A DNA stretch of 64,000 nt from Candidatus Parcubacteria bacterium. Lineage in GTDB: Bacteria > Patescibacteriota > Patescibacteriia > UBA1558 > GWA2-36-10. The stretch lies in contig JABHSK010000008.1 of assembly GCA_018669975.1 (NCBI GenBank), forward strand, positions 2,622 to 66,621. Direction: 5' to 3'. The translations under genes and the position numbers were made by a program. This document shows, piece by piece, positions 1 through 57,453 of the stretch (positions are counted from its first letter, which is position 1; every line of letters starts with the position of its first letter). The notes below the pieces were generated by a model, which searched no databases, had not been told where the DNA came from, and saw nothing but the letters and a program-made list of their open reading frames with translations.

Positions 1-635
1 TCAGGATGAAGTCCAGTAGCAATTAAGCCAGCAATATGAGCCATGTCTACCATTAGATAAGCACCTACTTCATCAGCTATTTGTTTAAATGGTTCAAAGT
101 CGATTTTTCTAGAATAGGCAGATGCACCAGCTAAAATTATTTTTGGTTTATGTTTTTTGGCTTGAGCACGTACCTCGTCCATATCAATCAGCTCTTTTTC
201 TTTATCTACTCCGTAGCTGACAAAATTATAGAATTTTCCAGAGAAATTAACTGGGTGTCCGTGAGTTAAGTGTCCGCCATGGGCTAAATCAAATCCTAAA
301 ATAGTATCACCCAACTCAACTAGCGCGAAATAAGCTTCCATATTAGCTTGTGAGCCAGCGTGTGGTTGCACATTAGCGTGTTCGGCACCGAATAATTCTT
401 TGGCACGTTCAATGGCTAGTGATTCAGATTGATCGATAAATTCATTACCACCATAATATCTTTTACTAGGATAGCCCTCAGCATATTTATTAGTTAGTAC
501 TGACCCAGCCGCTTCTAACACAGCCAATGAAACAAAATTTTCCGAAGCAATCATCTCTGCCCCGTGTCTTTGTCGATTTAGCTCTTTTTTTAAAATATCG
601 GATATTTTCGGATCCGTTTTTTTTAAACTAGCCAT
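1..635 (-). CDS. glyA: Serine hydroxymethyltransferase, N-terminal part; 3' end lies beyond the window start
   Basis: Minus-strand translation from ATG (complement of 633-635) reads [56 protein letters not shown]..., the canonical SHMT N-terminus (IASENF...[11 protein letters not shown]). The ORF runs off the window edge. Confidence 0.9.
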
Positions 636-709
636 GTTGTTTGAGTGATTAATTACGATATTTAGTTTATCATATTAAGCCCGATATGCAATAGCCGAGG
701 TTGCTACCC

Positions 710-1441: not shown

Positions 1442-2212
1442 CTACGTTTGGTCTATTAATACTTCATGGGTAAAGTACCAGTGGCCGCGGTGATTTTTTT
1501 CACCAAAGAGACGACCGGAACGAGCCCAACGACGGATAGTACTGGCATCCTTTTTGAAAAGTTTGGCAACTTTTTGGATATGCCAGTGACTGGTCATCTC
1601 CAGCCAAAGTTGCCAAATCTTGTCCAGCAATTGGGAGATACTCATGCTCCAGCGTTGTCCCAGAGCAACTTCCATATTATGCTCATTGAATTCTCCCTCG
1701 GCTCTGAGGATAGGCAGGATGACCTGATTGATGAATTCACGTTCACGTATTTTGGGGGACTTCTCGAACATAATGGGTTTTTGTCTTTTTTCCAAGTATG
1801 CTTGAAAATCACGTTGGCGGTCAGCAGCCAATTTGATATACCAGTCAATCTTCATGTCCAGCCTCCTTTGGAAAGCCACTAGGAAGTGGCCTCGCATGCT
1901 GTTGGGGATATCCCAATCCATAATCCCCATTTTGATTAATAGAGTCTGAAAATCCTCGTCATCTCGAGGAATTACCCCTCCATTTTTGAGGATGGGAATA
2001 AAGTGTCTGGTTTCTGGATTATCATATAGGAGCCCCATCTTGATTAACAGAGCTTTAAAATCTTCGTCGACAGGAATATAGTGTTCTGTATCTGGATCTT
2101 TATTTTCCAGGATAAAATCTAGGAATATTTGAAGTGTTTGAGGGGAGTCAAAATCAACCCCCAGTTTTCCATCAGATCTTGTTAGTCTGATGGTCATTTC
2201 ATCACTAGACAA
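1442..2212 (-). CDS. Hypothetical protein with C-terminal excisionase/MerR-like HTH (HTH_17-type) and internal DEDF-x-LLIKMG repeats
   Basis: C-terminus ...DASTIRRWARSGRLFGEKNHRGHWYF matches the 'TVYRWI..GKLPA.K.G..WRF' excisionase-family DNA-binding motif. Two internal repeats (EHYIPVDEDFKALLIKMGLL / RHFIPILK..DEDFQTLLIKMGIM). Confidence 0.5.
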   Translation of the reverse strand: MSSDEMTIRLTRSDGKLGVDFDSPQTLQIFLDFILENKDPDTEHYIPVDEDFKALLIKMGLLYDNPETRHFIPILKNGGVIPRDDEDFQTLLIKMGIMDWDIPNSMRGHFLVAFQRRLDMKIDWYIKLAADRQRDFQAYLEKRQKPIMFEKSPKIREREFINQVILPILRAEGEFNEHNMEVALGQRWSMSISQLLDKIWQLWLEMTSHWHIQKVAKLFKKDASTIRRWARSGRLFGEKNHRGHWYFTHEVLIDQT

Positions 2213-2293: not shown

Positions 2294-3937
2294 TTAGAGG
2301 TTTTTGGTCATATAGGTGCCTTCTAATGTATAACCAAGTTTTTTATAATAATTTCGTACCCCAATTCCGGAAATCACAGCCACTTTATTGAGTTTGTTAG
2401 CTCTGGTTATTTTTTCAGCTTCAGCCATCAATTTTTTTCCAAAACCACTGTGCTGAGTTTGTGATGTTTCGTCATCCAAACCTTCACCATAAGTTGGAAT
2501 CATTTTGCCATAAACATGTAGTTCACGAACTATACTAGCACCTTTTAGCTCCTCAAAAATATTCTGTTGTGAATTTTCATTGAGCCGTAGTCTTAGGAAG
2601 GCATAAATTTTTTGTCTATCTGGACTTTCAAAGCTTAAAAATATTTCACGACCCCTTGAGGACTTATATTCTCTAGTCACTAGTTCAGCTTGAGCGATAC
2701 CTGTGGTATCACCTTTTACTTCACGGCAGCGAATACACTGACAAGCTTTATTTTGTTTTTTGAGTCCCTGTTGTAGATATTGTCGTAGATTTGTAATTTT
2801 GTTACCAGCGGTAATACTTTCTTCAGGGATATCTCTAATTAAACGGTTAATGCGAACATATGGAGGAGTTAGTAATTTTATTTTCATCAATAAATCTGAT
2901 AAATCTTTTTCAGAATATGGTTTATATTTACCATCTTGATACCATTTGTGTAGTTCGGAATATTCGTTGACTATGCAGGGATATATTTTTATTTGATCTG
3001 GCTGCAGGTCAGAGGACTCAAAAACATATTTAAACATTTTTAAATCTTTGTCAGGACTTGAACCTGGTAGGTCAGGCATATAGTGATGATCTACTTTGAA
3101 TCCAGTCTCTTTTAGTAATCTAGTGGCTTCGATACTTGATTGTAGATCATGACCTCTTTGGATTTTGTCTAAAATTTTATTATCAGTGTGCTGAATACCG
3201 ATTTGTACTCTAGTGCAGCCTAAATGACGCATCCTTTTTATTTCAGCGGCTGTGACAAAGTCTGGTCTAGTTTCCAAAGTCAGGCCAATGATTTTATATT
3301 TAGTGTCTTCGTTTATTTTTTGTTCTTCTTCCAGACTTTTAGCGTGTCTTTTTTTCGTATCACCAAAAGTGTTTGCAGCAAAAAAACAATCACGAATAAA
3401 TTCATCCTGATATTTGACTGGATAGACAGACCAGGTGCCACCCAAGACTAATAGTTCTAATTTATCAACCTGATGACCATTGTTTAGTAGTGCCTGAATG
3501 CGCATAGTTACTTGGCGCATAGGATCAAACAAATTCATCTTAGCTCTCGCTGCTGCCGGTTCATTGGAAAGGTAACTTTTTGGCATATCTGGTTCAGATG
3601 GACAGTAAACACATTTGCCCGGACAAGTGAATGGTTTTGATAGAACTGTTATAACTGATACTCCGGATAATGTACGAACAGCTCGTTTTATTAATAATTC
3701 AGAGAATTTTCTATTTTCTTTCAATTTCCCCTTTTTTATCAAGTTTTTATATGCTACAATAAGGTTAGCTTTACTGGTTGGCGTCATTTTATGGCGGCTA
3801 AATACTTGTCGTAGAGCTTTGACAAAATCAAGTTCACTGGAATAGCTTTGTGTGGCCAGTTCCAGTACTATAGTTTCTAATTTTTCCTGCTTGTCAGGAG
3901 CCCGCTTAGCGGGATTATTTACAATATGTTTAGTCAT
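2294..3937 (-). CDS. elp3: Elp3-family tRNA uridine(34) carboxymethyl/acetyl-transferase (radical SAM + GNAT/KAT domain)
   Basis: KCVYCPSEPDMPKSYLSNEPAAARAKMNLFDPMRQVTMRIQALLNNGHQVDKLELLVLGGTW aligns with the Elp3 radical-SAM core ([30 protein letters not shown]...GHSVDKVEFILMGGTF). The C-terminal GNAT fold reads ...QHSGFGKKLMAEAEKI...GIGVRNYYKKLGY. Confidence 0.9.
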   Translation of the reverse strand: MTKHIVNNPAKRAPDKQEKLETIVLELATQSYSSELDFVKALRQVFSRHKMTPTSKANLIVAYKNLIKKGKLKENRKFSELLIKRAVRTLSGVSVITVLSKPFTCPGKCVYCPSEPDMPKSYLSNEPAAARAKMNLFDPMRQVTMRIQALLNNGHQVDKLELLVLGGTWSVYPVKYQDEFIRDCFFAANTFGDTKKRHAKSLEEEQKINEDTKYKIIGLTLETRPDFVTAAEIKRMRHLGCTRVQIGIQHTDNKILDKIQRGHDLQSSIEATRLLKETGFKVDHHYMPDLPGSSPDKDLKMFKYVFESSDLQPDQIKIYPCIVNEYSELHKWYQDGKYKPYSEKDLSDLLMKIKLLTPPYVRINRLIRDIPEESITAGNKITNLRQYLQQGLKKQNKACQCIRCREVKGDTTGIAQAELVTREYKSSRGREIFLSFESPDRQKIYAFLRLRLNENSQQNIFEELKGASIVRELHVYGKMIPTYGEGLDDETSQTQHSGFGKKLMAEAEKITRANKLNKVAVISGIGVRNYYKKLGYTLEGTYMTKNL

Positions 3938-4625
3938 GAGTGAAAAAATAAAAAAAGATTTGCAGAAAACCTATAACGATATTGCTAAGGAGTTTTCAGC
4001 TTCCCGTGTTTATCCCTGGGAAGAATTACAAGTCTTTATACCATACATAAAGGAAAACTTCAAGATACTAGACCTGGGTTGCGGCAATGGTAGATTGCTA
4101 AAATCTTTAGAGCCTTTGGAAAAAAGTTATAATTATATAGGCGTTGATTTTAGTGAAAATTTGATTGTCGAGGCTAAGAAACAATTTGCAGGTGTTAATA
4201 ATGCAGTATTCAAATTGTCAGACATTAATAAGATAAATTTTCCTAGCAATAGTTTTGATATGATTTTTATGATTGCTACCTTCCACCATCTGCCTAAAAA
4301 AACAGAAAGACTAGATTTATTATTTAAAATAAATAGGTGGCTTAAACCAGGTGGGCACCTTTTTATGACTAACTGGAATTTGTGGCAGAAAAAATATTTT
4401 AAGTATTCCATACAAAATTTTTGGCGTAAGCAGTCTTGGAATGATTTTTTTATTCCCTGGACTACCAATGATGGCGTAACAGCTTGGCGTTTTTATCATA
4501 GCTTTACTACTAAGGAACTTGTTAACCTACTTAAGCTTACTGGTTTTGAACTTAGGCCTGGTGGAGTTTATAAAACTAAATATAATATAGACTGTTTTGT
4601 AAAAAAACCTTTTAAGATAGAATAA
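3936..4625 (+). CDS. Trm9/ALKBH8-like SAM-dependent tRNA methyltransferase (class I MTase)
   Basis: ILDLGCGNGRLL (motif I) ... IATFHHLPKKTERLDLLFKINRWLKPGGHLFMTNWNLWQ parallels Trm9 [39 protein letters not shown]. Start chosen at MSEKIKK (ATG 3936), which overlaps the divergent elp3 start by 2 nt; the 3852 start in the ORF track is rejected. Confidence 0.7.
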   Translation: MSEKIKKDLQKTYNDIAKEFSASRVYPWEELQVFIPYIKENFKILDLGCGNGRLLKSLEPLEKSYNYIGVDFSENLIVEAKKQFAGVNNAVFKLSDINKINFPSNSFDMIFMIATFHHLPKKTERLDLLFKINRWLKPGGHLFMTNWNLWQKKYFKYSIQNFWRKQSWNDFFIPWTTNDGVTAWRFYHSFTTKELVNLLKLTGFELRPGGVYKTKYNIDCFVKKPFKIE

Positions 4626-4642: not shown

Positions 4643-5587
4643 ATGGACATTTTAAGTTATCCATTGATCATTAACATGCTACTATTGGTGGTAGTAGCAT
4701 TTTTTTTATTAAGAATGAACAACGGGCAGGACACTGGTAAGAAAGTAAGCGGTGTATTTGGTAAGTCTAAAAGTTTCCAACCAGTGGTTGAAAAATTTAC
4801 TGTTAATCTGACAGATATGGCCAGGCAGCAAAAACTTGATCCAGTGATTGGTCGCGATAAAGAAATCAAAAGAGTTATACAAGTACTATCTCGTCGCAAG
4901 AAAAACAACATTATTTTATTTGGTAAAGCTGGTATTGGCAAGACAGCTGTTGTAGAGGGTTTAGCCATTGCTATAGCTGAAGGAAAAGTACCCAGATCAT
5001 TATTGACCAAAAAAGTATTAAAATTAGACATTTCATCTGTATTGGCAGGCACTAAATATAGAGGTGAATTTGAAAATAGGTTTAAGGCTTTAATTGACGC
5101 TTTTGTAGAAACGAATAAACAAATAATTGTTTTTATTGATGAAATTCATACTATTGTTCAGGCTGGTGGGGTCGATGGCGCTGTTGATGCCGATGACATC
5201 ATTAAGGGTCCGTTAGCCAGGGGTGATTTACAAATGCTTGGGACAACTACTACCAAAGAATATAATCAATATATTGCTACAGACCCCACTTTAACTAGAC
5301 GCTTCGAAGGTCTGTTGGTTTATGAGCCTAGCAAGACTCAAACTGTGGAAATGCTCAAGGCTTTGCGCAAAAACTATGAAGATTATCATAATGTTATTAT
5401 CGGCGATGAAGTTATTAAAAAAATGGTAGAATTATCTGCTAAGATAAAGACTAGAGTTTTTCCAGATAAGGCTATTGATATTATGGATGAAGTCTCAGCT
5501 AAGGTGCGTTTAGATAATATAGATAATAATAAAAAGATTAAAATAACAATCCAGGACATTAAGGAAATTTTAAAAGATTTTAAATAA
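4643..5587 (+). CDS. ClpA/B/C-like AAA+ ATPase containing only a first nucleotide-binding domain, with N-terminal TM helix
   Basis: [53 protein letters not shown] matches Clp NBD1 ([44 protein letters not shown]). Walker B [12 protein letters not shown] is present. The N-terminal hydrophobic helix is [12 protein letters not shown]. The protein is 314 aa with no second AAA module. Confidence 0.6.
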   Translation: [314 protein letters not shown]

Positions 5588-5944: not shown

Positions 5945-7315
5945 ATGAAGGATAATATTTTTAAATCTTACGATATCAGGGGTATATATCCAGAGGAGCT
6001 CAATGAACAAGATGTACAGCAAATAGCCCAGGCCTATCTGACCATGTTATCTGAAAAGCTTAATAAACCAATAAAGAAATTAAAGATAGTAGTCTGTAAA
6101 GATGTGCGTGGTTCTTCAGGGTTATTACTTGAGGAGGCTATTAAAGTCTTTTTGGAATATGGGGTTCAGGTAGACGATTATGATTTTATATCTATCAATG
6201 GTTATTATTTTGCAGCTGGATACTATAAGTATGATGGCGGTCTTATGGCTACAGCTTCTCACAACCCACCAGAGTATGGTGGATTTAAAATGGTCATCAA
6301 AAATACAGAGTATAGCGACAGTATAGAATTTATTAGTGGTAAGGAGCTACTAGACAGATTAAAGAAGATAGATTTTCCCATTAAAGACGAAAAGATTAAA
6401 GGTGGCAGAGAAACAAAAGAGCTTAGACATGAGCACCTAAAACATATATTTAGTTTTGTTCAACAAGAGAAATTTAAACCTTTTAAAGTGGTGGTTGATA
6501 CTGGAAATGGTATGAATGGTTTGTTGATTCCTAAAATTTTTGAGAAAACACCCTGTGAGTTGATTAATATGTTTCCAGATCCAGATGGTAGTTTTCCTAA
6601 TCGTAATCCAAATCCTTTAGCTCCTGGCGCGGCTGATAAAATCAGTCAGAGAGTAGTAGCCGAAGGTGCTGATATGGGTTTTATTTTTGATGTAGATGGT
6701 GATCGCATGTTTATGGTTGATGAAAAAGGGCAGTTTATAAGAGGTGATATGATTTTACCTCTAATGGCTAAGCCAATGTTGGAACGTTTTCCTGGTCAGG
6801 GCATAGCTTACAATTTAATTTGTTCTCATACCGTGCCAGAGTTAATTAGAAAATGGGGCGGTAAGCCCATCCGTAGTGAAGTTGGCTATTTAAATTTAGC
6901 TAGACACATGCGAGAAGAGGGTGGGGTTATGAGTGGTGAGGTTTCTGGGCATTTTGCTTTTCGTGACAATTATTATGCTGACTCAGCTTTTATAGCCATG
7001 TTATTAGTCTTGCAACAATTAACAGAAGATGGGCGCAAGTTATCTGAAATTATAAAAGAAAACACGTTTTATTCTAGAGGTGATGAAATAAACATCAAGG
7101 TAGATGACATACCTGCCAAGCTAGATAAAATTCGCCAGACCTATAGTGCTAATATTTTAGATGAGATTGATGGCATCACTGTCGAGTTTGATGATTGGTG
7201 GTTTAACGTTCGTGCATCTAACACAGAGCCTTTATTGAGGGTGACTGTTGAGGCTAGTAATGAAGACAAGCTTAAGGCTAGGCAGCAGGAAATTTTAAAT
7301 CTTATTAATAATTAA
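5945..7315 (+). CDS. Phosphomannomutase/phosphoglucomutase (alpha-D-phosphohexomutase)
   Basis: Active-site serine loop ATASHNPPEYGGFK, Mg-binding loop FDVDGDR and phosphohexomutase domain order. Confidence 0.85.
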   Translation: MKDNIFKSYDIRGIYPEELNEQDVQQIAQAYLTMLSEKLNKPIKKLKIVVCKDVRGSSGLLLEEAIKVFLEYGVQVDDYDFISINGYYFAAGYYKYDGGLMATASHNPPEYGGFKMVIKNTEYSDSIEFISGKELLDRLKKIDFPIKDEKIKGGRETKELRHEHLKHIFSFVQQEKFKPFKVVVDTGNGMNGLLIPKIFEKTPCELINMFPDPDGSFPNRNPNPLAPGAADKISQRVVAEGADMGFIFDVDGDRMFMVDEKGQFIRGDMILPLMAKPMLERFPGQGIAYNLICSHTVPELIRKWGGKPIRSEVGYLNLARHMREEGGVMSGEVSGHFAFRDNYYADSAFIAMLLVLQQLTEDGRKLSEIIKENTFYSRGDEINIKVDDIPAKLDKIRQTYSANILDEIDGITVEFDDWWFNVRASNTEPLLRVTVEASNEDKLKARQQEILNLINN

Positions 7316-30192: not shown

Positions 30193-30222
30193 TTAAGCTA
30201 ATTTTTGGTATAATATAGATGT

Positions 30223-30747
30223 ATGATTTTTAGAAGTTCAAAACATAGTGTAGACTCCGACACAGGCTTAGAGTTTGATGAAACTACCGAGGTTTGGGTA
30301 GCAGACTTCGGATCTCATAATGTTGAGACTGAGATCAGAGAACAGGTTTTAAAATTAAAGCCGAAAAAGGAAAAAGGCATTAGTTGGATACTGACCTCTA
30401 TTATATTATTATTGTTTATAGTGGCTACAGAGTTTTCATTACGGCAATTTGCAATAAGCTTATATTGGTCTGAATTTACTATTTTTTGGGTCACCTGGCT
30501 GTGGAGATTACTTTTGATTGTTGTTTGGATGTACCTGTCTAGATTTGTCTGGTATGTCAAAATAGATAAAATGTTTGCAGTGGCTATAGTGTCTTTTACT
30601 TTAGCAGTTATTATTCTAGCCATACTCAAGATTTTTTATGTACAAGCTGCTTGGACATGGCTTAATTTATTGGTGGAGCCAATTTGGATGGTTTTAATTG
30701 TTACTTTATTAGGCGTTTTGTTTTTAAAATTTAATAAATATAAATAA
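30223..30747 (+). CDS. Hypothetical membrane protein
   Basis: 174 aa with about 4 TM helices in the C-terminal two-thirds. No family assignment. Confidence 0.4.
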   Translation: MIFRSSKHSVDSDTGLEFDETTEVWVADFGSHNVETEIREQVLKLKPKKEKGISWILTSIILLLFIVATEFSLRQFAISLYWSEFTIFWVTWLWRLLLIVVWMYLSRFVWYVKIDKMFAVAIVSFTLAVIILAILKIFYVQAAWTWLNLLVEPIWMVLIVTLLGVLFLKFNKYK

Positions 30748-45824: not shown

Positions 45825-45862
45825 TTTTTGACTTATATGTAATTTTGGCATAATATAACTAT

Positions 45863-49581: not shown

Positions 49582-51219
49582 ATGATGGAAATAGCTAAAA
49601 GAAAATTTTATCATCCATTAGTCTGGTTGATTTTTTTAGTGGTCGCCCTATTGGCATATCATAAGTCACTGGGAAATTATTTTGTTTCAGATGATTGGCA
49701 TTGGCTATCATTGGCTAGAGATACCAGTTGGAGCTGGCATATTTTTTGGTCTAACTATGAGGGCACCAACTTAGGTGGGTCCTATAATCCATTATTAATT
49801 TCAATCTGGAAGTTATTTTTTAATATTTTTCAGCTCAAATATTCTGCTTATCATTTAGTGAGTTTGATTTTGCATGCCAGTAACGCTTTTGTGCTTTATC
49901 TACTCGCTAAAAAAATATTTACTTTGACCAAACTAGCCAGTAAAGAATTTTGGTCTATTGTGGCTGCTAGTTTATTTTTGTTGTGGCCAGTGCAGGTAGA
50001 GGCTGTTACTTGGATTTCAGCTTGGCCACATCCTTGGGTAACTATACTTTATTTACTATCATTATTATTTTATTTTTCCTGGCGTCAGCAAGGACGCAGA
50101 AAGCACATTTACGTATCTTTAATATTTTTTGTTTTAGCTTTATTGATTAAAGAAGTGGCCATTAGTTTGCCATTTGTGATTTTATTGTGGGAAGCTTATT
50201 TTCATTCTACTAGAGATAGAATCAAAACCAAGACATTGCCCATCTATTTTATTATTCTAGCCTTGTTTATTTTTATTCGCTATCAAGCTACGGCAGTTTT
50301 ATTTGGTTATTATGGTCGCAGTTCGTTTGGTTGGCCAATTAAAGAATGGATCGGCAACATAGGCGGACTCCTTAATGATTTTCTATCAGCTGGATATTTT
50401 AGGGAAATGTATTTTAAGGGATGGTATCATTATCTTGATTCGCTGGTTATTGTGATCACGGTTGCTCTGGGAATATATTTTTATTATCTACTGGCAAAGA
50501 AAAAATTTTTACAGTTTACTATTTTCTTCTCTTTGCTACTTAGCATGGTGCCAGCTTTACCGCTTGGTCTTAGTCGAACAACTTTTGAAGGAGAGCGATA
50601 TCTTTATCTACCGAGTATATTTTTTATTCTTTGGTTTGTATATATCCTAGCTAAGATACGTTTAGCTCAAAAATTTAAATATATATTGCTAGTAGTTTTA
50701 TTGTTGTCTAATCTGGTTACTGTTTGTTATAAAAATAATATTTGGCGAGCAGCCGCAGATTTAAGCAATCAAATAGTCAGTAGTTTTGATAGATTGGATT
50801 CCCCAGCTGGGCAAAAACTAATGACAGTGGCCCTGCCTGATAATCTATCTGGCGCTCAAGTCTTTCGTAACAATTTACAGCAGGCGCTAGAATTTACTTA
50901 TCCAGACAAAGCCCCACGAATTTTATCACTACCAGTTTATCAGAGATTTACTATGTTTAATATTAACGATCGTTTGTTGAATTGGCAGTCTAAAGATGTA
51001 GGTTGGTTGGCTGAGAGTCAGAGTGGCGATTTTGTTGTCACCGGCATCACCTCCATAGAAGTAGAGAACATGTATTTTGAACTTTGGAATTATAATTATC
51101 AAAATTATACCTCAAATATAATTCGTTTAATCCCCAATGAAATTTTGGCGGAGCAATTAAACTCGCAAGACATTAATTTACTTATTTTTGACAGAGGATT
51201 GTTGAAGCTTTTTAAGTAA
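49582..51219 (+). CDS. Large multi-pass membrane protein, GT-C-like glycosyltransferase (PMT/ArnT-like) candidate
   Basis: 545 aa with more than 10 TM helices. The first loop has the D-D-W-H acidic motif (FVSDDWHWLSLA) seen in GT-C (PMT_2/ArnT) family transferases. Confidence 0.4.
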   Translation: MMEIAKRKFYHPLVWLIFLVVALLAYHKSLGNYFVSDDWHWLSLARDTSWSWHIFWSNYEGTNLGGSYNPLLISIWKLFFNIFQLKYSAYHLVSLILHASNAFVLYLLAKKIFTLTKLASKEFWSIVAASLFLLWPVQVEAVTWISAWPHPWVTILYLLSLLFYFSWRQQGRRKHIYVSLIFFVLALLIKEVAISLPFVILLWEAYFHSTRDRIKTKTLPIYFIILALFIFIRYQATAVLFGYYGRSSFGWPIKEWIGNIGGLLNDFLSAGYFREMYFKGWYHYLDSLVIVITVALGIYFYYLLAKKKFLQFTIFFSLLLSMVPALPLGLSRTTFEGERYLYLPSIFFILWFVYILAKIRLAQKFKYILLVVLLLSNLVTVCYKNNIWRAAADLSNQIVSSFDRLDSPAGQKLMTVALPDNLSGAQVFRNNLQQALEFTYPDKAPRILSLPVYQRFTMFNINDRLLNWQSKDVGWLAESQSGDFVVTGITSIEVENMYFELWNYNYQNYTSNIIRLIPNEILAEQLNSQDINLLIFDRGLLKLFK

Positions 51220-51255
51220 TTTAGACAAAAAATTCACCTTGACCTTATCCATGAC

Positions 51256-51290
51256 GCGTGTTATAAATAAGTGTTTTTGTAGTACTTTTA
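51256..51290 (+). promoter_or_regulatory. Candidate sigma70-like promoter (TTGACC-17-TATAAA) upstream of the MutS-domain gene
   Basis: ttgacc ttatccatgacgcgtgt tataaat, about 100 nt upstream of the RBS aaaaggagag. Confidence 0.3.
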
Positions 51291-51388
51291 TATTTAGAGA
51301 ATAACTAGTGTTTTAGACTAGTGCTATATAGATTATCGTAAGTATTGTCACGGTAAAAACCTAAAACCACACTCAAAAGGAGAGTCAA

Positions 51389-53425
51389 ATGGCCGCAACC
51401 GTACCGAAGATTCCCTATCCGGAACCTGATAAGCTCACTCTTTGGAACACCAGTGTTTCCAAGAAGGATCGTCTCAGGATTATTAATGAGGAAGATTTTC
51501 CTCGCGAGGAGATTCTCAGTAGTCTGGGTCTGGGTAAGAAATCGGAATTGGTCAAAAGTTTTGGTATCACTGATGAAGGTGAGCTTCGTGCTCGTCATGC
51601 ACTCGGTGCCATGCTCTTAGCCGACGATGATTTCATGGACTGGTCACGACAGAATCATCGTTCGTTACCCAATATTCCCGCGAACGAAGGAGCTTTTTTG
51701 GAGTTCTATGATCCCCAGTTGGAGCACAATCCCTACTGGACTGAAGTTCATCGTTTCCTGGCTTTCGTGGACAACTATCCCGATCCGCCTGTCAGGCTCA
51801 AGCAAGTAGCTGACAAGCTGCGCGAAGGCTTACCTCTCGAGGACATGGAGACCGAAATGGCTCGGCAGATTGCTGAGCGACTCAAGGTCGTCACGGTTAT
51901 CGAGGGTGTCATGCACATGAGACTGGTTGTGGATCACTATACGCCTACCAAGAAAAATGCCGAAGGCGAGAAGGTTCCCAATGGTCCGTCATTTTGGAGA
52001 CTGAAAGATATTTCTCATTCACACAGCAGGGTATTTGGCCATCGGCTCTATAGTCAAGGCCTGTCCTCTGTGCGTATGGTGGAAAATCCCGACTGGAACA
52101 AAAGCAAGTGGAATCCGGCCATCTGGCTGGGTATTGCTAAGGCTTGGCGGGGTGTCGTTAATCTGCGTAACTGGTGGCGTCGCCGTAAGGCTTATCGTCA
52201 GATGGTGATCACCGGGCAAAGCAAAGATATGGTTAAGGATGTTGGCGACGCTATCAAGCGACGCATTTCTAAGGTTCCTATGAGCGATAAGTTCAATGGA
52301 GCGCTAGTGACAGTGTCTTTTGTCTATGACAAGGATGGTCTTAGGGTTCAGATTATGGACATCAAGTCTGCCAAGCGTACCCTGGATAGTGATCAACGTC
52401 GCGAGATTTCTTCGGGCGTCGATAATTTCGAGGGCTATACTTCATTACAGAAGGAGCAGATCGAAAGGGCTCACGTCGAGCGACGTGAAGCTGCTATGGA
52501 ACTGCAACGTTGTCAGAAGTCCGACGCTCTGCGCCTACTTTTAGCAGCAGTTAATCCAAGCTTCTTCAGTAGTCTGACAACCGAGCGCTCAACGGAGATG
52601 GACAAAGAGTATCGCTGGTTCGCTATCAGTAATGAATACTACGGTCGCTGGGATGAGCTTTATCAAGCTCTGCGTCAGAATCGTGGTTTCTTTACCCGTC
52701 ACTTCAATCGACTGAGCCAGGTGGCTGAGTTGGTCAACAAGGTGGCTGATAAGGGTAGAGATCTCGGTGTCCCTGTTTGTTCACCGGAGATTGTTTCCAA
52801 TGGTCATATTGTGGTCTTTGAAAAACTCTGGCCTACACACCTGCTTTTCCGTTTGGATCGCAAGTCGGTAGTTCCGATCGAGCGTTTGCCCGAGCTCAAT
52901 GGGCAGATGATCGGTTTGACTGGCAAGCATGGTGGCGGCAAGACTGAAACTCAGATTGCGGTGGTAGCCAACATCTATCTGGCCCATTCTGGTGTACCGG
53001 TCTTCGGCAGCTACTTCAAGTCCAACGTCAAAAAGGTGTTGGGTATGGTCTTTATTGCCCAGCGTGGTGATGGCTCGACCTGCGAGATGTTGCTGGCCAA
53101 GATCCGCAAGGTCCTCGAAGGTATCAAAAAGTGCGACGGCAGAGAAGTCGTACTGGTACTGGACGAGGTCGGTTCGGCTACTCAGGAAGTGGCTGGCTTC
53201 GAACTCGGTCGTGACCTGCTGTCCACTCTGTCCGGACGAAACGTCTCTGTGCTCTTTAGCACGCAGATCACTTCGCTGGCAGAGTATGCTGACACTGAAC
53301 TGGGAGCTTTGAGTTTCCAGATGGATCGCAAGCACAGGATTAATACCGGCATCGGTGATGGCGGCATGACTGACTTGCGTCGTTCCATGGGAGTGGATAA
53401 GTTCCTGACCAAAGTCGCTAGCTAA
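51389..53425 (+). CDS. Standalone MutS domain V-like ABC ATPase with large uncharacterised N-terminal region
   Basis: C-terminal 230 aa: IGLTGKHGGGKTETQIAVVANIYLAHSGVPVFG (compare MutS [31 protein letters not shown]), GDGSTCEMLLAKI (MutS GRSTFMVEM), VVLVLDEVGSATQEVAGFELGRDLLSTL (MutS [23 protein letters not shown]), VLFSTQITSLAE (MutS TLFATHYFELT). The N-terminal roughly 450 aa have no recognisable motif. The coding DNA is visibly G+C-richer than the genome background. Confidence 0.6.
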   Translation: MAATVPKIPYPEPDKLTLWNTSVSKKDRLRIINEEDFPREEILSSLGLGKKSELVKSFGITDEGELRARHALGAMLLADDDFMDWSRQNHRSLPNIPANEGAFLEFYDPQLEHNPYWTEVHRFLAFVDNYPDPPVRLKQVADKLREGLPLEDMETEMARQIAERLKVVTVIEGVMHMRLVVDHYTPTKKNAEGEKVPNGPSFWRLKDISHSHSRVFGHRLYSQGLSSVRMVENPDWNKSKWNPAIWLGIAKAWRGVVNLRNWWRRRKAYRQMVITGQSKDMVKDVGDAIKRRISKVPMSDKFNGALVTVSFVYDKDGLRVQIMDIKSAKRTLDSDQRREISSGVDNFEGYTSLQKEQIERAHVERREAAMELQRCQKSDALRLLLAAVNPSFFSSLTTERSTEMDKEYRWFAISNEYYGRWDELYQALRQNRGFFTRHFNRLSQVAELVNKVADKGRDLGVPVCSPEIVSNGHIVVFEKLWPTHLLFRLDRKSVVPIERLPELNGQMIGLTGKHGGGKTETQIAVVANIYLAHSGVPVFGSYFKSNVKKVLGMVFIAQRGDGSTCEMLLAKIRKVLEGIKKCDGREVVLVLDEVGSATQEVAGFELGRDLLSTLSGRNVSVLFSTQITSLAEYADTELGALSFQMDRKHRINTGIGDGGMTDLRRSMGVDKFLTKVAS

Positions 53426-53502
53426 TTCTCTAATCTATATTCCCTGTCACTTCGGTGGCAGGGCTTTTTATTTTCTTGAAAAACAGAATACCCCTTTAAT
53501 CG

Positions 53503-53531
53503 TTGACATTTCGTAAAAAATATGGTATTAT
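53503..53531 (+). promoter_or_regulatory. Strong sigma70-like promoter (TTGACA-17-TATTAT) followed by a leader hairpin
   Basis: ttgaca-tttcgtaaaaaatatgg-tattat. About 30 nt downstream is the hairpin accacg-gggttt-cgtggt, within the 5' leader of the 53576/53606 ORF. Confidence 0.45.
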
Positions 53532-53605
53532 TTCTAATCGCGTAAATTTAAGCGCAAAACCCACCACGGGGTTTCGTGGTAGCACTTTCACAAAGAGGTT
53601 GTGCA

Positions 53606-54205
53606 ATGCACGATTACACGGTTGTACTGGGTGTTGGAGCAGCTTTGTTCCACGGTGCAGCCTACGTGTTGTACAACATCCAAACTCACTTCGGAAAATC
53701 AAAACCAAATCCAGCTAGCTGGGCCATTTGGACACTGTTGTCTATTTTAAATGCCTGGTCTTTTAAGGAAGTTAGTGCGGACAATCTGTCCACTCTGCAA
53801 TTTTTTACTGGCTCGGTGGCCTGCATGATCACTTTTTTCTATACCTGGTATCGAGGTAAACTCAAAAGCCTCAAGCCTAGCGAATGGAGAATTTTAGCTC
53901 TAGCTTTGTCAGTCATCCTAGTCTGGCGAATATTTAACAGCGCTACTGGTGCTAACATGCTCGTCGTCCTAACTTTCATCATTTCATTTATTCCCACCCT
54001 TAAGGGTGTACTAGCTGATCCGTTCAAGGAGTCACCGCGTTCTTGGTGGCTATGGACTATGGCTTTTGCCCTTACCATCGGTAGTATCCTACTGCGTTGG
54101 AGGGGAGAACCTCTAGCACTGGTCATGCCGATCGTTCTGTTGATTGCTCACGGCAGTATTGCCGTACTTTCATCGCAGAAGCGTAAAGATAAATTTTCCA
54201 CTTGA
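53606..54205 (+). CDS. Hypothetical multi-pass membrane protein (G+C-rich island)
   Basis: About 200 aa with 6 predicted TM helices (VVLGVGAALFHGAAYVLY...; WAIWTLLSILNAW...). The start is ambiguous between GTG/ATG 53576 and ATG 53606 (MHDYTVVL). G+C is higher than the flanking genome. Confidence 0.45.
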   Translation: MHDYTVVLGVGAALFHGAAYVLYNIQTHFGKSKPNPASWAIWTLLSILNAWSFKEVSADNLSTLQFFTGSVACMITFFYTWYRGKLKSLKPSEWRILALALSVILVWRIFNSATGANMLVVLTFIISFIPTLKGVLADPFKESPRSWWLWTMAFALTIGSILLRWRGEPLALVMPIVLLIAHGSIAVLSSQKRKDKFST

Positions 54206-54217
54206 GTTATTCGACAC

Positions 54218-54265
54218 CGAGGCAAGTATTTCACAGCATGTGAAACAACTACCTCGGTTTTTTAA
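54218..54265 (+). terminator. Rho-independent terminator
   Basis: accgagg-caagtatttcacagcatgtgaaacaactac-ctcggtttttt. Confidence 0.55.
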
Positions 54266-54305
54266 TAAATAAAAGAACAGCTCCACGGGGAGTTGTTCTT
54301 CAAGT

Positions 54306-54797
54306 CTAATTTTTACTAGTACCTATCACTATCAAAGTTTTTCCATTGTCTTCTCCAATGGTAATGGAGACACTACGGTCATCTTTCTCAGCGCCTAGCA
54401 TGACATTGTTTTCAATCACGAAAGACATGGTTGTATTCCAGCCTTCTTCTTCTAATTTGTTTTCATACTCCTCTTGTAGCTCGGTGACAGATTTAGTAGA
54501 TTCAATACTGACATTAAAGATTCCATTTTCATGACTAGAGGCAGAAGTAATTGCACCTTCGGCAATATAAATGTCATCTGGCCAATCTTCAGGTAATTCT
54601 GTTCCAGCGCCAACTTGCATCGTGCCTTCATCAGTTTTTATTTTTACAGAGTCATCGTCTAGATCCACATCTGCATTGCCACCCATGGAGTTTTCAATTT
54701 GTTTCTCCATTGATTTTTCAGTAGCCGTTTTCTTGCCACAAGCACTAAGTGTTAGTGATAGCAACAAACAAAAGCTAATAATAAAGAGTTTTTTCAT
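54306..54797 (-). CDS. Putative lipoprotein (hypothetical)
   Basis: Signal peptide plus lipobox: MKKLFIISFCLLLSLTLSACGKK. The mature part is acidic and soluble. Confidence 0.5.
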   Translation of the reverse strand: MKKLFIISFCLLLSLTLSACGKKTATEKSMEKQIENSMGGNADVDLDDDSVKIKTDEGTMQVGAGTELPEDWPDDIYIAEGAITSASSHENGIFNVSIESTKSVTELQEEYENKLEEEGWNTTMSFVIENNVMLGAEKDDRSVSITIGEDNGKTLIVIGTSKN

Positions 54798-54806
54798 ATG
54801 CTTTTA

Positions 54807-55454
54807 TTAATTATTGAATAAATAATTTCCTCCGGTAGCACTACAGGTGCCGGCTGCATAGGTGATTAAGTCACCAGTGATTGGATCACCACCATGAGGA
54901 TAATACCAAATAATTGTTTCGTAACTAGTACCAACAGAATTTTGGCAGCCTCCTGAGGTGGGTTGCGGACAAGGATTATCACTATATATGCCTACACCTT
55001 GGCAGTTTAAATCTTTGACACTTGGGGTTGCCCAATAAGAGCCAATATAGTCTGTGCAAACACTAGAATCGTTTATCACATTACATGAACCAATAGCATT
55101 AGACTCCTCACCACTACCTGGTCCGTTTGGTTCATCATCTTCTAGTCCAGCATAATAATCGTCTGATCCGGGTCCTTGTGGCTCTGGTTCATATGGCAGT
55201 TCTTCACCTGATCCGGGTCCAGTTGGTTCTGGTGAATAATCGAATTCACCACTGCCAGGACCATCGTAGGCGGGATCATGTTCTAGTCCAGCATTATAAT
55301 CATCTGAACCGGGATTATCGTATTCGGCAAAATCTCCACTACCTGGTCCTGTCGGTTCGTCGGGAAACCAATCATCAAGTTGAGTATAAATAATGCCACC
55401 AACAATTACTAAAGCAGCTGCTCCTCCTATGGCAATTCCCTTTAATCTATCCAT
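54807..55454 (-). CDS. Secreted/anchored acidic repeat protein with GPGSG(E/D) repeats and Cys-rich C-terminal domain
   Basis: N-terminal TM helix, then at least 5 repeats of (E/D)P-x-GPGSG(E/D)... (PTGPGSGDFAEYDNPGSDDY / DGPGSGEFDYSPEPTGPGSGEELPYEPEPQGPGSDDYY / PNGPGSGEE). The C-terminal roughly 90 aa contain 8 Cys. Confidence 0.45.
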   Translation of the reverse strand: MDRLKGIAIGGAAALVIVGGIIYTQLDDWFPDEPTGPGSGDFAEYDNPGSDDYNAGLEHDPAYDGPGSGEFDYSPEPTGPGSGEELPYEPEPQGPGSDDYYAGLEDDEPNGPGSGEESNAIGSCNVINDSSVCTDYIGSYWATPSVKDLNCQGVGIYSDNPCPQPTSGGCQNSVGTSYETIIWYYPHGGDPITGDLITYAAGTCSATGGNYLFNN

Positions 55455-55543
55455 AATAGTTATTAATTTTATTATATAAGCATTATAGCACTAAAATTTT
55501 TTATGTAAAATAAAAGGAGCCGCTAAGCGACTCCAGGATAAAA

Positions 55544-56614
55544 TTAATTGGGTTGGCGATAAGCGAATTTGTATTTCAGTTCTTTTTCTACCAACTCACC
55601 CTCCCAGGGACCAACAAAGGTAGCTCCGGCCAACCAGTCTTTGCTCTCAGTGCTGTAGCTACGACTAGCTCGGTAGGCCTTTTTGCCATCTCGGCCAACA
55701 CGGTAACACAAAAAGCCTCCGTAGTTATTGAGTGCAACTACAACCCAGTCAAGCTGATCATTAAGCCACTCATCTGATCCTTTGGATTGTTTTCTTACAT
55801 TGACTCTGACATGGGCTGGTAGCGGCAGGTCTCTGATAGTTCCCTTACGGATGATATCACCTGACTTGAATGTCTTAGGCACTCTTTCTTTCTTAGGCTT
55901 TTGAGCCTGTGCCTTGGGTACGTCTGCCAAGCCTCGTTGTTCCAGTGTTTCGCAGAGAAGATTCAGGAATTCGATATCCCGTTCGACACGAGTGGCCTTG
56001 AAAGAAGCATCGTAATCGACTACTTCAAAGTCAGGGTCTGCATCCCGTATTTCTTCTTCTACATCAGCGTAGGACATAAGCACTTGGGCATAGGCCGAAC
56101 GTTTGTCGGCAAGGATTTCACAGATAGCTGTGATATTTTTTTCTTTCCAGCCATAGTCTTTGCCAAACATCCCAGCGCCATGATACTCAGCACCCTTTTG
56201 TTTGCCAACGCCTCTGAGGAAGCGGACAAAAGCTGAGCGAGCCCAAGTCTTGGGAATTTCTGTCAGTGCCCGAAGGATAGTATAGAGCTCTCGGCGGCTT
56301 TGAGGGTTGTTGTGAATATCGAGCACTTCAATTGTTTTTGGTGCATCAGAATTAACAAATGCACCGTCCAAGGAAATGAATAATTCACCACGACTGCCAA
56401 CAAAAATCAGCAGAGCATTGAGGAATTCGTTTGGCCGTGCTTGTACACGGCGAACCTTGGTAATTAGATGAGCTCCCTCGATAGCTTCTTTCTGAGCCCA
56501 ATACTCACTATGTGACATGCCGGCATCTCGTTTTTGAGCATATTCAGTGCTGGCAGCATCCAAACTCTTTTTTAATGCTACTAACTCTGTCTTAGTGAAA
56601 AGTGGTTTAGCCAT
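55544..56614 (-). CDS. Hypothetical 356-aa protein (orphan, G+C-rich)
   Basis: Good RBS (aaaggaggcc-ATG on the minus strand) and uninterrupted coding potential. No family motif recognised. G+C is clearly above the genome background. Confidence 0.5.
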   Translation of the reverse strand: MAKPLFTKTELVALKKSLDAASTEYAQKRDAGMSHSEYWAQKEAIEGAHLITKVRRVQARPNEFLNALLIFVGSRGELFISLDGAFVNSDAPKTIEVLDIHNNPQSRRELYTILRALTEIPKTWARSAFVRFLRGVGKQKGAEYHGAGMFGKDYGWKEKNITAICEILADKRSAYAQVLMSYADVEEEIRDADPDFEVVDYDASFKATRVERDIEFLNLLCETLEQRGLADVPKAQAQKPKKERVPKTFKSGDIIRKGTIRDLPLPAHVRVNVRKQSKGSDEWLNDQLDWVVVALNNYGGFLCYRVGRDGKKAYRASRSYSTESKDWLAGATFVGPWEGELVEKELKYKFAYRQPN

Positions 56615-56763
56615 TTTGGCCTCCTTTGTTTGTGGTCTTGTTTCAAGGTGCTATATTAAAAACAATAGATATGCCATAATATTTCACCTTACCTTAGCAC
56701 TTAGCCATTTATTCTGTCAAACAAAAAACCGATCAATCTAGATCAGTTTTTATATTCAAAATT

Positions 56764-57399
56764 TTATTTAACGAGATATCGTTGAGCCTCTGCCAGTTTG
56801 TTTTTGAAGTGGGTATCTGTATTGTATAGTTTTAAGTTATATTTTTTTGCCTCCCTATTAAAAAATTTACTGAGCTCAACTATCATATGAGCAATTTTCA
56901 AGTAGGTTGTTTCATTTTTCGTTCTATTCACAAACCAATCATTTTTATCTGCAAATTTTTTACCCTTACTTACAATATCCTCGGCGTCCATTTTTGTAAA
57001 AAAGACAGCCCTTACATTGCGTGGTCCATATTTCTTGCTTAGTTTTTTAACTAGCTCAGGATGAATATGGTAGCCTTCGATAACAATACTCCTACCCTCA
57101 TATAATTCACAGTCAACAAATGTCTCAACGGCAGTCCATATTGCCCGTGACTGTTTGAGGTAAGTGGAGGTTATTTGCTTAGTGGTATATTGACTGTACA
57201 TTAAATCATTGCTGTATTTGGTTTTTCTTCTGATGACAGTTTTGGGAAATTTTTTTGTTATTTCTTTTGCTGACATACAAGATCGGACAACTCTTTCAAG
57301 GGTGTCTGTAGATAACCAACTAACATTCAATTTTTTGCTTAGTCTTTTTGCGGTAGTTGTTTTACCACAGCGTGGTGCACCACCTATTAAATAAATCAT
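56764..57399 (-). CDS. P-loop NTPase/kinase-like protein
   Basis: MIYLIGGAPRCGKTTTAKRLS Walker A at the N-terminus. An internal Met was chosen as the start rather than the upstream MFIKKCYNLC extension. About 210 aa, AT-rich (native composition). Confidence 0.5.
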   Translation of the reverse strand: MIYLIGGAPRCGKTTTAKRLSKKLNVSWLSTDTLERVVRSCMSAKEITKKFPKTVIRRKTKYSNDLMYSQYTTKQITSTYLKQSRAIWTAVETFVDCELYEGRSIVIEGYHIHPELVKKLSKKYGPRNVRAVFFTKMDAEDIVSKGKKFADKNDWFVNRTKNETTYLKIAHMIVELSKFFNREAKKYNLKLYNTDTHFKNKLAEAQRYLVK

Positions 57400-57425
57400 G
57401 CATAAATTATAGCATTTTTTTATAA

Positions 57426-57453
57426 ACAAAAAAACCGCCAGTAGGCGGTCTTT
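57426..57453 (-). terminator. Rho-independent terminator downstream of typA
   Basis: Minus strand: agaccgcc-tact-ggcggttttttt. Confidence 0.65.

Follow-up and report, generated by a model that had tools for sequence, protein, structure and literature searches.

A head-to-head gene pair for Elp3 and a Trm9-like methyltransferase in Patescibacteria, a predicted two-enzyme module for wobble-uridine modification of tRNA

The stretch of DNA analysed here, 64,000 nucleotides (nt) long and referred to as the window, is a bacterial chromosome segment of low GC content (about 36%) that carries two divergent genes, one for the radical-SAM protein Elp3 and the other for a methyltransferase resembling Trm9. 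The host is a bacterium, since the window encodes the sigma-70 factor RpoD, DnaG, RNase J and TypA; synthetase genes of the TyrRS/TrpRS type are present as well. The nearest Elp3 relatives, counting one genome per GTDB species, lie in metagenome-assembled genomes (MAGs) of Komeilibacteria and Parcubacteria (74-76% Elp3 identity), and the host is a member of the Patescibacteria, or Candidate Phyla Radiation (CPR), related to Komeilibacteria. The features of the locus are listed below by window position, residues of Saccharomyces cerevisiae Trm9 being denoted ScTrm9 and M. infernus Elp3 being denoted MinElp3.

2294..3937, minus strand: gene for Elp3, 547 amino acids (aa), recognised by TIGR01211, by Pfam Radical_SAM and Radical_SAM_C and by the PDB structures 6iaz, 5l7j and 8ptx
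2438..2455, minus strand: GNAT acetyl-CoA-binding motif QHSGFG, residues 495-500, aligned with QHMGYG of MinElp3
2726..2743, minus strand: Zn-binding linker C399-x-C401-x2-C404 (CQCIRC), aligned with CRCIRC of MinElp3
3602..3625, minus strand: radical-SAM [4Fe-4S] cysteine triad C105-x3-C109-x2-C112 (CPGKCVYC), aligned with CPHGKCIFC of MinElp3
3935..3938, both strands: palindromic CATG, read directly from the sequence, with both start codons inside it (intergenic distance -2)
3936..4625, plus strand: gene for the Trm9-like class I S-adenosylmethionine (SAM)-dependent methyltransferase, 229 aa, beginning MSEKIKK, recognised by Pfam Methyltransf_25/11, the family profile and hhalign
3972..4019, plus strand: N-terminal Trm9 signature Y13-NDIAKEFSAS-R24-VYP-W28, aligned with VYEQIASHFSSTRYKPW of fungal Trm9
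4071..4091, plus strand: SAM-binding motif I, D46-LGCGNG, in which D46 corresponds to ScTrm9 D72
4284..4289, plus strand: H117-H118, equivalent to H115 and H116 of ScTrm9, the latter essential
4374..4388, plus strand: W147-NLW-Q151, in which W147 corresponds to the essential ScTrm9 W145 and Q151 to the dispensable Q149
4458..4460, plus strand: W175 in FFIPW, corresponding to the essential ScTrm9 W168 and aligned with VMVPW of Trm9
4488..4499, plus strand: R185-F-Y187-H188, corresponding to ScTrm9 R241-Y-Y243-H and aligned with RYYH of Trm9
4584..4586, plus strand: N217, where the last beta-strand begins; it probably corresponds to ScTrm9 N271, which is essential

As judged from its sequence, the minus-strand open reading frame (ORF) is a full-length and intact member of the Elp3 family. 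It scores 536.4 bits against the NCBIfam model TIGR01211 'Elp3' (cut-off 350), with residues 55-547 covering positions 28-522 of the 522 in the model, and it aligns through its last residue, 547, with the Elp3 structures of M. infernus and D. mccartyi in the PDB (6iaz and 5l7j; E ~1e-114) as well as with those of yeast, mouse and human (E 1e-94 to 1e-98). The bit scores amount to 386 for MinElp3, 385 for the D. mccartyi protein (DmcElp3) and 318-333 for yeast, mouse and human Elp3. An earlier note on this DNA, made from the letters alone, had called the ORF an unambiguous Elp3 on the strength of its CVYCP core, and had pointed to the presence of the cysteine triad in a proper alignment as the feature to be checked: within FTCPGKCVYCP the radical-SAM triad (C105, C109 and C112) is intact and aligned with that of M. 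infernus Elp3. The C-terminal acetyltransferase fold claimed in the same place is also borne out, given that the GNAT part, sub-threshold in Pfam when taken alone (Acetyltransf_10, E 0.0076), nevertheless lies inside the Elp3 structure alignments and carries QHSGFG.

The window Elp3 also carries an N-terminal extension of ~83 aa, as do archaeal and eukaryotic Elp3, whereas the Dehalococcoides protein is without it, its alignment beginning at residue 84 of the window Elp3. In this regard, the extension is required for tRNA binding in archaeal Elp3, and a cysteine Zn motif in the linker has been described for bacterial and archaeal Elp3 (PMC6367351).

The assignment of the plus-strand methyltransferase comes from family-level comparisons. 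Searched as a single sequence in Pfam and NCBIfam, it matches generic class I models only, UbiE, BioC and ArsM being on top, and phmmer against the PDB ranks plant phosphoethanolamine methyltransferases above Trm9, covering core residues 38-147. These searches were superseded by family profiles because their top matches are generic or misleading. The NCBIfam models for UbiE, MenG, BioC, UbiG, CmoA and CmoB reach 27-47 bits against cut-offs of 103-420 (UbiE NF001244, 47 against 216; MenG/UbiE TIGR01934, 45 against 158; BioC, 46.7 against 185; UbiG, 41.9 against 103; CmoB, 32 against 275; CmoA, 27 against 193). A profile of the CPR family built from 45 relatives (A1; 223 positions) has as its top PDB match the Trm9 of Yarrowia (5cm2_Z; E 1.3e-26, 96.8 bits, positions 22-217, that is 196/223), with 3sm3 at 79 bits and phosphoethanolamine methyltransferases at 54 bits for the best stretch; methyltransferases other than Trm9 are matched in the SAM-binding core alone. 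In line with this, the A1 profile and an alignment of 28 named fungal Trm9 (A2), gathered with the Trm9 fragment from the 5cm2_Z alignment, match each other in hhalign with a probability of 100% (E 8e-40, 200 columns), at an identity of ~25% between the methyltransferase and fungal Trm9.

Cross-scoring with hidden Markov models (HMMs), for which the Trm9 reference set is fungal only and leaves out archaeal and animal sequences, points in the same direction. The fungal Trm9 HMM finds the methyltransferase as its sole match (82.5 bits) among 296 stop-to-stop ORFs of the window, and from the 3556 ORFs at 135 loci it retrieves 122 family members (56-122 bits) plus one unrelated methyltransferase (18 bits). 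With the CPR HMM, fungal Trm9 proteins reach 103-120 bits, and E. coli UbiE 46, CmoA 35.7, BioC 28, UbiG 27, CmoM 23.7 and CmoB 10.5; the fungal Trm9 HMM gives these same six enzymes 2-10 bits. Overall, the reciprocal scores are 66-120 bits on the Trm9 side versus 2-46 bits for the six E. coli methyltransferases. A neighbour-joining (NJ) tree likewise separates the six from the CPR and Trm9 sequences with a bootstrap of 179/200 (140/200 with the 3sm3 fragment added), this tree being a crude one (Kimura distances, 227 columns) by which CPR monophyly is not resolved and which hints that eukaryotic Trm9 branches inside or next to the CPR clade. The M. mazei protein 3sm3 was itself considered as an archaeal Trm9 and rejected, its aligned sequence being without the HH and W motifs.

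Together, these comparisons show that the methyltransferase groups with Trm9 and not with UbiE, CmoA or CmoM, and its product is a predicted tRNA (carboxymethyluridine34-5-O)-methyltransferase. The earlier note had suggested profile searches of both ORFs and a phylogeny of the methyltransferase, with clustering among UbiE or other non-tRNA methyltransferases as the outcome that would count against its proposal; Elp3 lies above the TIGR01211 cut-off, the methyltransferase belongs to Pfam Methyltransf_25/11 with Trm9 as its best profile match, and the profiles, hhalign and the NJ tree, in which UbiE and CmoA are among the enzymes set apart, all place it with Trm9. The family is large, with about 1,363 clusters at 50% identity and E <= 1e-30, a figure in which non-CPR Trm9 relatives are counted. 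Existing annotations are mixed: NCBI labels the relatives 'class I SAM-dependent methyltransferase', and names derived from JGI/KEGG read TRM9 or ALKBH8 for some and 'ubiquinone/menaquinone...' for others. Regarding the start of the protein, a longer ORF from GTG 3852 is not supported; ATG 3936 is preferred because homologues align from residues 1-5.

The motifs read in the methyltransferase are LDLGCGNG at residues 45-52, IATFHHL at 113-119 and NWNLWQ at 146-151, and the parallel with Trm9 drawn previously from them extends to the residues that Trm9 cannot do without. Eight residues are essential in S. cerevisiae Trm9 (R29, D72, H116, W145, W168, R241, Y243 and N271) and Q149 is dispensable (Letoquart et al., PMC4678810). 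Seven of the eight align exactly, R29 with R24, D72 with D46, H116 with H118, W145 with W147, W168 with W175, R241 with R185 and Y243 with Y187, and are kept in 84-115 of 115 distinct relatives. R24 and W147 are invariant (115/115), followed by D46 (114/115), H118 and Y13 (111/115 each, Y13 aligning with ScTrm9 Y18), H188 (109/115) and R185 (108/115). At position 175 tryptophan is found in 100/115 and an aromatic residue in 113/115; Y187 is kept in 84/115, being swapped for V, I, L or F in 27/115. Q151, present in 67/115 only, is variable, mirroring the dispensability of yeast Q149. As for the eighth residue, N217 is near-invariant (90/99 of the sequences having a residue there) and is probably the equivalent of N271.

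The pairing of the two genes is a property of the lineage. A GTDB scan (one genome per species) with the Elp3 protein as query gave 49 loci, of which 42 are bacterial and extend 600 nt or more beyond Elp3 on its upstream side, and in 36/42 of these Patescibacteria loci the methyltransferase is directly upstream and divergent. The lineages bearing the pair include Komeilibacteria, Nomurabacteria, Buchananbacteria, Paceibacterota and one Saccharibacteria MAG; three archaeal Elp3 loci (L050, L052 and L053) have no methyltransferase adjoining. Conversely, scanning metagenome contigs with the methyltransferase profile gave 80 loci, and a divergent Elp3 stands at 67 of the 70 with upstream room, down to identities of 35% for the methyltransferase and 41% for Elp3. 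Chance pairing is excluded because of the E-values and because the same arrangement recurs in more than 100 independent loci. Adjacency in relatives, a further check put forward in the earlier note, is thus amply found, and the note's central idea of a possible bacterial module of the (m)cm5U34 type gains support, both ORFs being family members by sequence and the divergent pair being conserved. Its remark that bacterial Elp3 homologues are sporadic, on the other hand, does not apply within this lineage, Elp3 being common across Patescibacteria.

The three metagenomic methyltransferases with no Elp3 neighbour (L090 3959-4699, L110 3818-4639 and L118 2409-3128) score 113-119 bits with the fungal Trm9 HMM, above typical CPR members. 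They represent a different subgroup, closer to eukaryotic Trm9, because of these higher scores and because a high-GC organism is the source of one or more of them; L110, which is of that kind and possibly archaeal, clusters with fungal Trm9 in the NJ tree. At one of the CPR Elp3 loci that have no Trm9-like partner, L040 (4014-5135), a different class I methyltransferase of 374 aa lies downstream of Elp3 (no more than 44 bits to the CPR HMM and 18 to the Trm9 HMM). It should be mentioned that many loci (L008, L013, L014, L017 and others) have Patescibacteria-like gene content under third-party annotation (TPA) MAG titles reading 'uncultured Gammaproteobacteria bacterium', which look like placeholders or mislabels and not like taxonomy.

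The window DNA at the junction reads ...GTCATGAG..., where CAT at 3935-3937 is, on the complement, the ATG of Elp3 and ATG at 3936-3938 is that of the methyltransferase, so that the start codons share 2 nt, just as the earlier note had read them. When each start is placed at the in-frame ATG that most closely precedes the conserved core, the intergenic distance among 87 divergent pairs is exactly -2 in 46, zero or below in 62 and at most 30 nt in 74. A CATG with both frames open is found in 49 distinct junction sequences, at 41-86% Elp3 identity to the window (e.g. L001, L007, L057, L083 and L124), and this shared CATG is the modal arrangement of the pair. Its recurrence suggests selection on the geometry of initiation.

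The N-termini of both proteins are rich in Lys, Asn and Glu, encoded by A-rich codons, and the flanks of the CATG are for this reason ~85% A+T; a position-specific profile of the 49 aligned junctions displays this A+T richness alone, with no sharp -10 box. A shared control region between the genes, as supposed earlier, is not present as an intergenic one: the distance is zero or negative, and any promoter would therefore lie inside the first codons of the partner, which leaves the co-regulation suggested along with it conjectural. Shine-Dalgarno sequences precede ~4 of 38 well-defined genes of the window, the others having mostly A/T-rich upstream regions. The genes at 30223 and 45863 (dnaG) have the boxes TGGTATAAT and TGGCATAAT (30198-30222 and 45838-45862), of the extended -10 type; the spacing from the end of the box to the ATG is 8 nt, which points to leaderless transcripts of both genes. 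Because Shine-Dalgarno sequences are rare and some genes have an extended -10 element ~8 nt before their ATG, leaderless or near-leaderless expression of Elp3 and the methyltransferase, from promoters embedded in each other's first codons, can reasonably be inferred.

Taken together, the findings point to a two-enzyme module that would make 5-carboxymethyluridine (cm5U) and then 5-methoxycarbonylmethyluridine (mcm5U) at U34, the wobble position of tRNA, in Patescibacteria, a reading to which we give a probability of roughly 0.75. In a first step the stand-alone Elp3, through its radical-SAM [4Fe-4S] and acetyl-CoA-binding GNAT domains, would carboxymethylate C5 of U34 to yield cm5U, a reaction demonstrated for archaeal Elp3; in a second, the adjoining Trm9-type methyltransferase would use SAM to esterify the carboxylate of cm5U, giving mcm5U, which might be thiolated onward to mcm5s2U. 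The methyltransferase would act without Trm112. Given the zero-length intergenic space, the promoters and 5' ends would sit in the A-rich codons of the partner gene, perhaps with leaderless mRNAs and with coupled or mutually exclusive initiation. This mechanism is proposed because of what is known of the two families (PMC6367351, PMC4678810 and PMC6144793) and of the conservation seen here; enzymatic activities, tRNA substrates, Trm112 independence and thiolation are all predictions from sequence.

Several observations weigh against parts of this proposal. N217 sits 2 positions after the Asn of Trm9 (N271), and a 1-residue gap would be needed to match them. The AlphaFold2 model of the methyltransferase (pLDDT 93.8) has the class I strand order, and Foldseek against the PDB ranks 3sm3 first, METTL6 second and Trm9 third, so that the fold does not single out Trm9. 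An adjacent methyltransferase is absent from 6/42 CPR Elp3 loci, one of them in a Peregrinibacteria MAG. A scan for sigma-70 promoters around the CATG gave 11 matches versus 9.2 +/- 2.6 in shuffled sequences, which is chance level. Finally, Trm9 depends on Trm112 in eukaryotes and Haloferax, and phmmer with E. coli YcaR (PF03966) found no Trm112/YcaR-like protein below E 0.9 in window ORFs of at least 35 aa or in the ORFs of the 135 loci, a weak negative, since the window and loci sample little of each genome. Clustering of the neighbours at 127 loci brought up no conserved small gene either.

The alternative that survives best keeps Elp3-dependent modification of U34 and places the end product elsewhere: the methyltransferase would act on another Elp3-dependent intermediate, or further enzymes, for thiolation, amidation to 5-carbamoylmethyluridine (ncm5U) or hydroxylation, would define the physiological product, and not simple mcm5U. 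In yeast and Haloferax, cm5U, ncm5U and mcm5U are not related in a simple way. The absence of detectable cm5U in Haloferax lacking trm9 (PMC6144793), the accumulation of ncm5U in yeast trm9 mutants (PMC3110198), the shifted equivalent of N271 and the replacement of Y187 in about a quarter of the relatives (27/115) are in line with such a scheme. However, every residue with a proposed part in binding the uracil ring and the carboxylate of cm5U (R24, R185, Y13, H117/H118 and W147) is conserved, and we consider this alternative unlikely.

Far less probable is that the methyltransferase serves the synthesis of a cell-envelope glycopolymer together with a WecG/TagA glycosyltransferase, its synteny with Elp3 being without functional link. 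Five family representatives at 50% identity (P0319, P0328, P0337, P0365 and P0373) are seamless fusions, with no internal stop, of the methyltransferase to a C-terminal WecG/TagA domain (Glyco_tran_WecG), and a separate WecG is the next gene downstream in four loci (L069 4602-5564, L120 3272-4051, L108 and L113); no tRNA role explains either association, and they count against the tRNA proposal. Yet such cases are few (5 of the 150 best representatives, 4/80 loci) and the window has no adjoining WecG. The fused proteins retain the Trm9 signature residues, and a divergent Elp3 still lies upstream at the fusion locus L141 at least, as it does at L069 and L120, linkage to Elp3 being almost universal. 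As a separate observation, one representative (P0357) has a NUDIX hydrolase as its fusion partner.

A general small-molecule or lipid methyltransferase of the UbiE, MenG, BioC or phosphoethanolamine type, placed next to Elp3 incidentally, is largely refuted and hardly credible: its case is that generic class I models and phosphoethanolamine methyltransferases top the single-sequence searches and that relatives are annotated generically or as 'ubiquinone/menaquinone...', but the curated UbiE, MenG and BioC cut-offs are each missed by more than 100 bits, the matches in question are to the SAM-binding core (38-147) whereas Trm9 aligns end to end, the reciprocal HMMs and hhalign side with Trm9, and the adjacency holds in 67/70 and 36/42 loci. 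We give equally little credence to Elp3 being a protein lysine acetyltransferase or acting on another RNA, with a non-tRNA target for the methyltransferase, as its former annotation as a histone acetyltransferase, a name that persists in PDB entries, might suggest, because tRNA, and not peptides, is what specifically triggers Elp3 from bacteria, archaea and eukaryotes (PMC6367351) and the partner bears the cm5U-binding residues of Trm9.

The two-enzyme module for U34 can be compared with known systems. The closest parallel is archaeal: the genes for Elp3 and Trm9 are clustered in Sulfolobus (S. solfataricus), and Trm9 (HVO_1032) with Trm112 makes mcm5U in H. volcanii (PMC6144793). The window pair resembles archaeal Elp3 and Trm9(-Trm112) in having Elp3 without Elp1, 2, 4, 5 and 6, in the N-terminal extension and the Cys-x-Cys-x2-Cys Zn motif, and in the Trm9-type partner, with gene clustering preceded in Sulfolobus; it differs in its bacterial host, in the fixed head-to-head arrangement, usually on one shared CATG, and in that no Trm112 was found in the window or the loci. 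With eukaryotic Elongator (Elp1-6) and Trm9-Trm112 or ALKBH8-TRMT112 it shares the two catalytic folds and the predicted chemistry from U34 through cm5U to mcm5U, but it is without the accessory Elongator subunits, and its methyltransferase has neither AlkB or RRM domains nor the insertion specific to yeast. DmcElp3 of Dehalococcoides mccartyi is likewise bacterial and stand-alone, with a matching domain arrangement (385 bits); unlike the window Elp3, with its ~83 extra residues, it is without the N-terminal extension, and it is weakly active (PMC7663514). No report of a Trm9 partner in Dehalococcoides was found in the literature examined.

The known bacterial routes to modified U34, MnmE-MnmG-MnmC (cmnm5U/mnm5U) and CmoA-CmoB-CmoM (cmo5U/mcmo5U), are similar in their target and in following a carboxyl side chain at C5 with methylation. 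CmoM, like Trm9, methyl-esterifies the carboxylate of the U34 side chain. Nevertheless, the enzymes of both routes are unrelated to the window pair, the Cmo proteins scoring far below Trm9. Neither MnmE nor MnmG is encoded within the 64-kb window. A wider proposal would be that, across much of the CPR, Elp3-Trm9 replaces MnmE-MnmG, that U34 of the mcm5U type thereby belongs among the normal tRNA modifications of bacteria, that Trm9 works without Trm112 and that, in a unique arrangement kept by selection, both mRNAs are leaderless and start from one CATG, with either promoter within the opening codons of the opposite gene and with obligatorily coupled or mutually exclusive initiation; as a whole this is speculative, and we regard it as possible but doubtful.

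With respect to the literature, a 2020 review ascribed Elp3 to a single bacterial clade, Dehalococcoides, and stated that xcm5U derivatives had never been shown in bacteria (PMC7663514), while a 2017 review held that bacterial genomes contain no detectable homologue of the methyltransferases partnering Trm112 and that Trm9 in prokaryotes is restricted to Sulfolobales and Halobacteriales (PMC5372719). A 2026 paper, for its part, speaks of 'numerous bacteria' having Elp3. Our literature search found no paper joining Elp3 with the Candidate Phyla Radiation, Patescibacteria, Parcubacteria or Saccharibacteria, and the Elp3-Trm9 pair in CPR is apparently unreported in the literature searched. What is described here is a known pathway; new is the lineage, a very large one, and the gene architecture conserved in it is unusual. 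The assignment was partly anticipated by the NCBIfam Elp3 and JGI TRM9/ALKBH8 names.

Beyond the pair, synteny is partial: clustering of the neighbours at 127 loci identifies serine hydroxymethyltransferase (SHMT) in 38, phosphoglucomutase (PGM) in 32 and FolD in 30, with no universal third gene, and the window shares in this synteny with SHMT (3..674, minus strand, cut by the window start) and PGM (5945..7315). Where present, SHMT and FolD are encoded on the strand of Elp3 and downstream of it, as in L001 (1120-3313) and L003 (2177-4325), and in L003 they follow Elp3 directly, in operon-like fashion, with gaps of 51 and 1 nt. The presence of genes of one-carbon and SAM metabolism beside two SAM-consuming enzymes may be functional or mere synteny.

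The immediate neighbours of the pair are of a different nature. On the Elp3 side, 81 nt downstream, the gene at 1442-2212 (minus strand, 256 aa) encodes a protein with a C-terminal helix-turn-helix of the HTH_17/MerR-like type and an internal repeat (HFIPVDEDFKALLIKMG / DDEDFQTLLIKMG), possibly a local regulator; related ORFs lie downstream of Elp3 in 14 loci, and the gene in that slot of L001, of 149 aa, is weakly similar (E 0.001). On the other side, 17 nt downstream of the methyltransferase, the gene at 4643-5587 (plus strand, 314 aa) encodes a protein in which a hydrophobic helix at the N-terminus precedes a lone Clp/Hsp100 D1 AAA+ module with its lid. Matching ClpB with 318 bits over positions 154-400 (cut-off 1232), its predicted product looks like a membrane-anchored, truncated Clp-like ATPase, and the syntenic slot of L001 holds a different gene. 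Farther away, seven ORFs in a row (158-678 aa) at 49582-57429 have no Pfam match at E 1e-5. GC content is 0.455 at 52-56 kb versus ~0.35 elsewhere. Strong Shine-Dalgarno sites are rare in this genome, and two of them (before 51389 and 55544-56614) fall inside this region, which may be a foreign or lineage-specific island.

The locus and more than 100 relatives reveal a complete and tightly linked Elp3 and Trm9 pair across Patescibacteria, among the largest bacterial radiations, contrary to what the reviews have stated. If the pair is active, decoding of the mcm5U type would be no marker of archaea and eukaryotes, and the translation apparatus of CPR bacteria would share one more archaeal or eukaryote-like trait. 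An active pair would also make both enzymes available to mechanistic studies in a bacterial form that is small, soluble and stand-alone; the eukaryotic counterparts, Elongator and Trm9, are hard to handle. In addition, the recurrent shared CATG provides a clean natural case for the initiation of transcription and translation at abutting divergent genes, in a genome mostly without Shine-Dalgarno sequences. Finally, and again provided that the pair is active, the origin of the Elongator pathway, by vertical descent or by transfer between CPR bacteria and archaea, would become testable.

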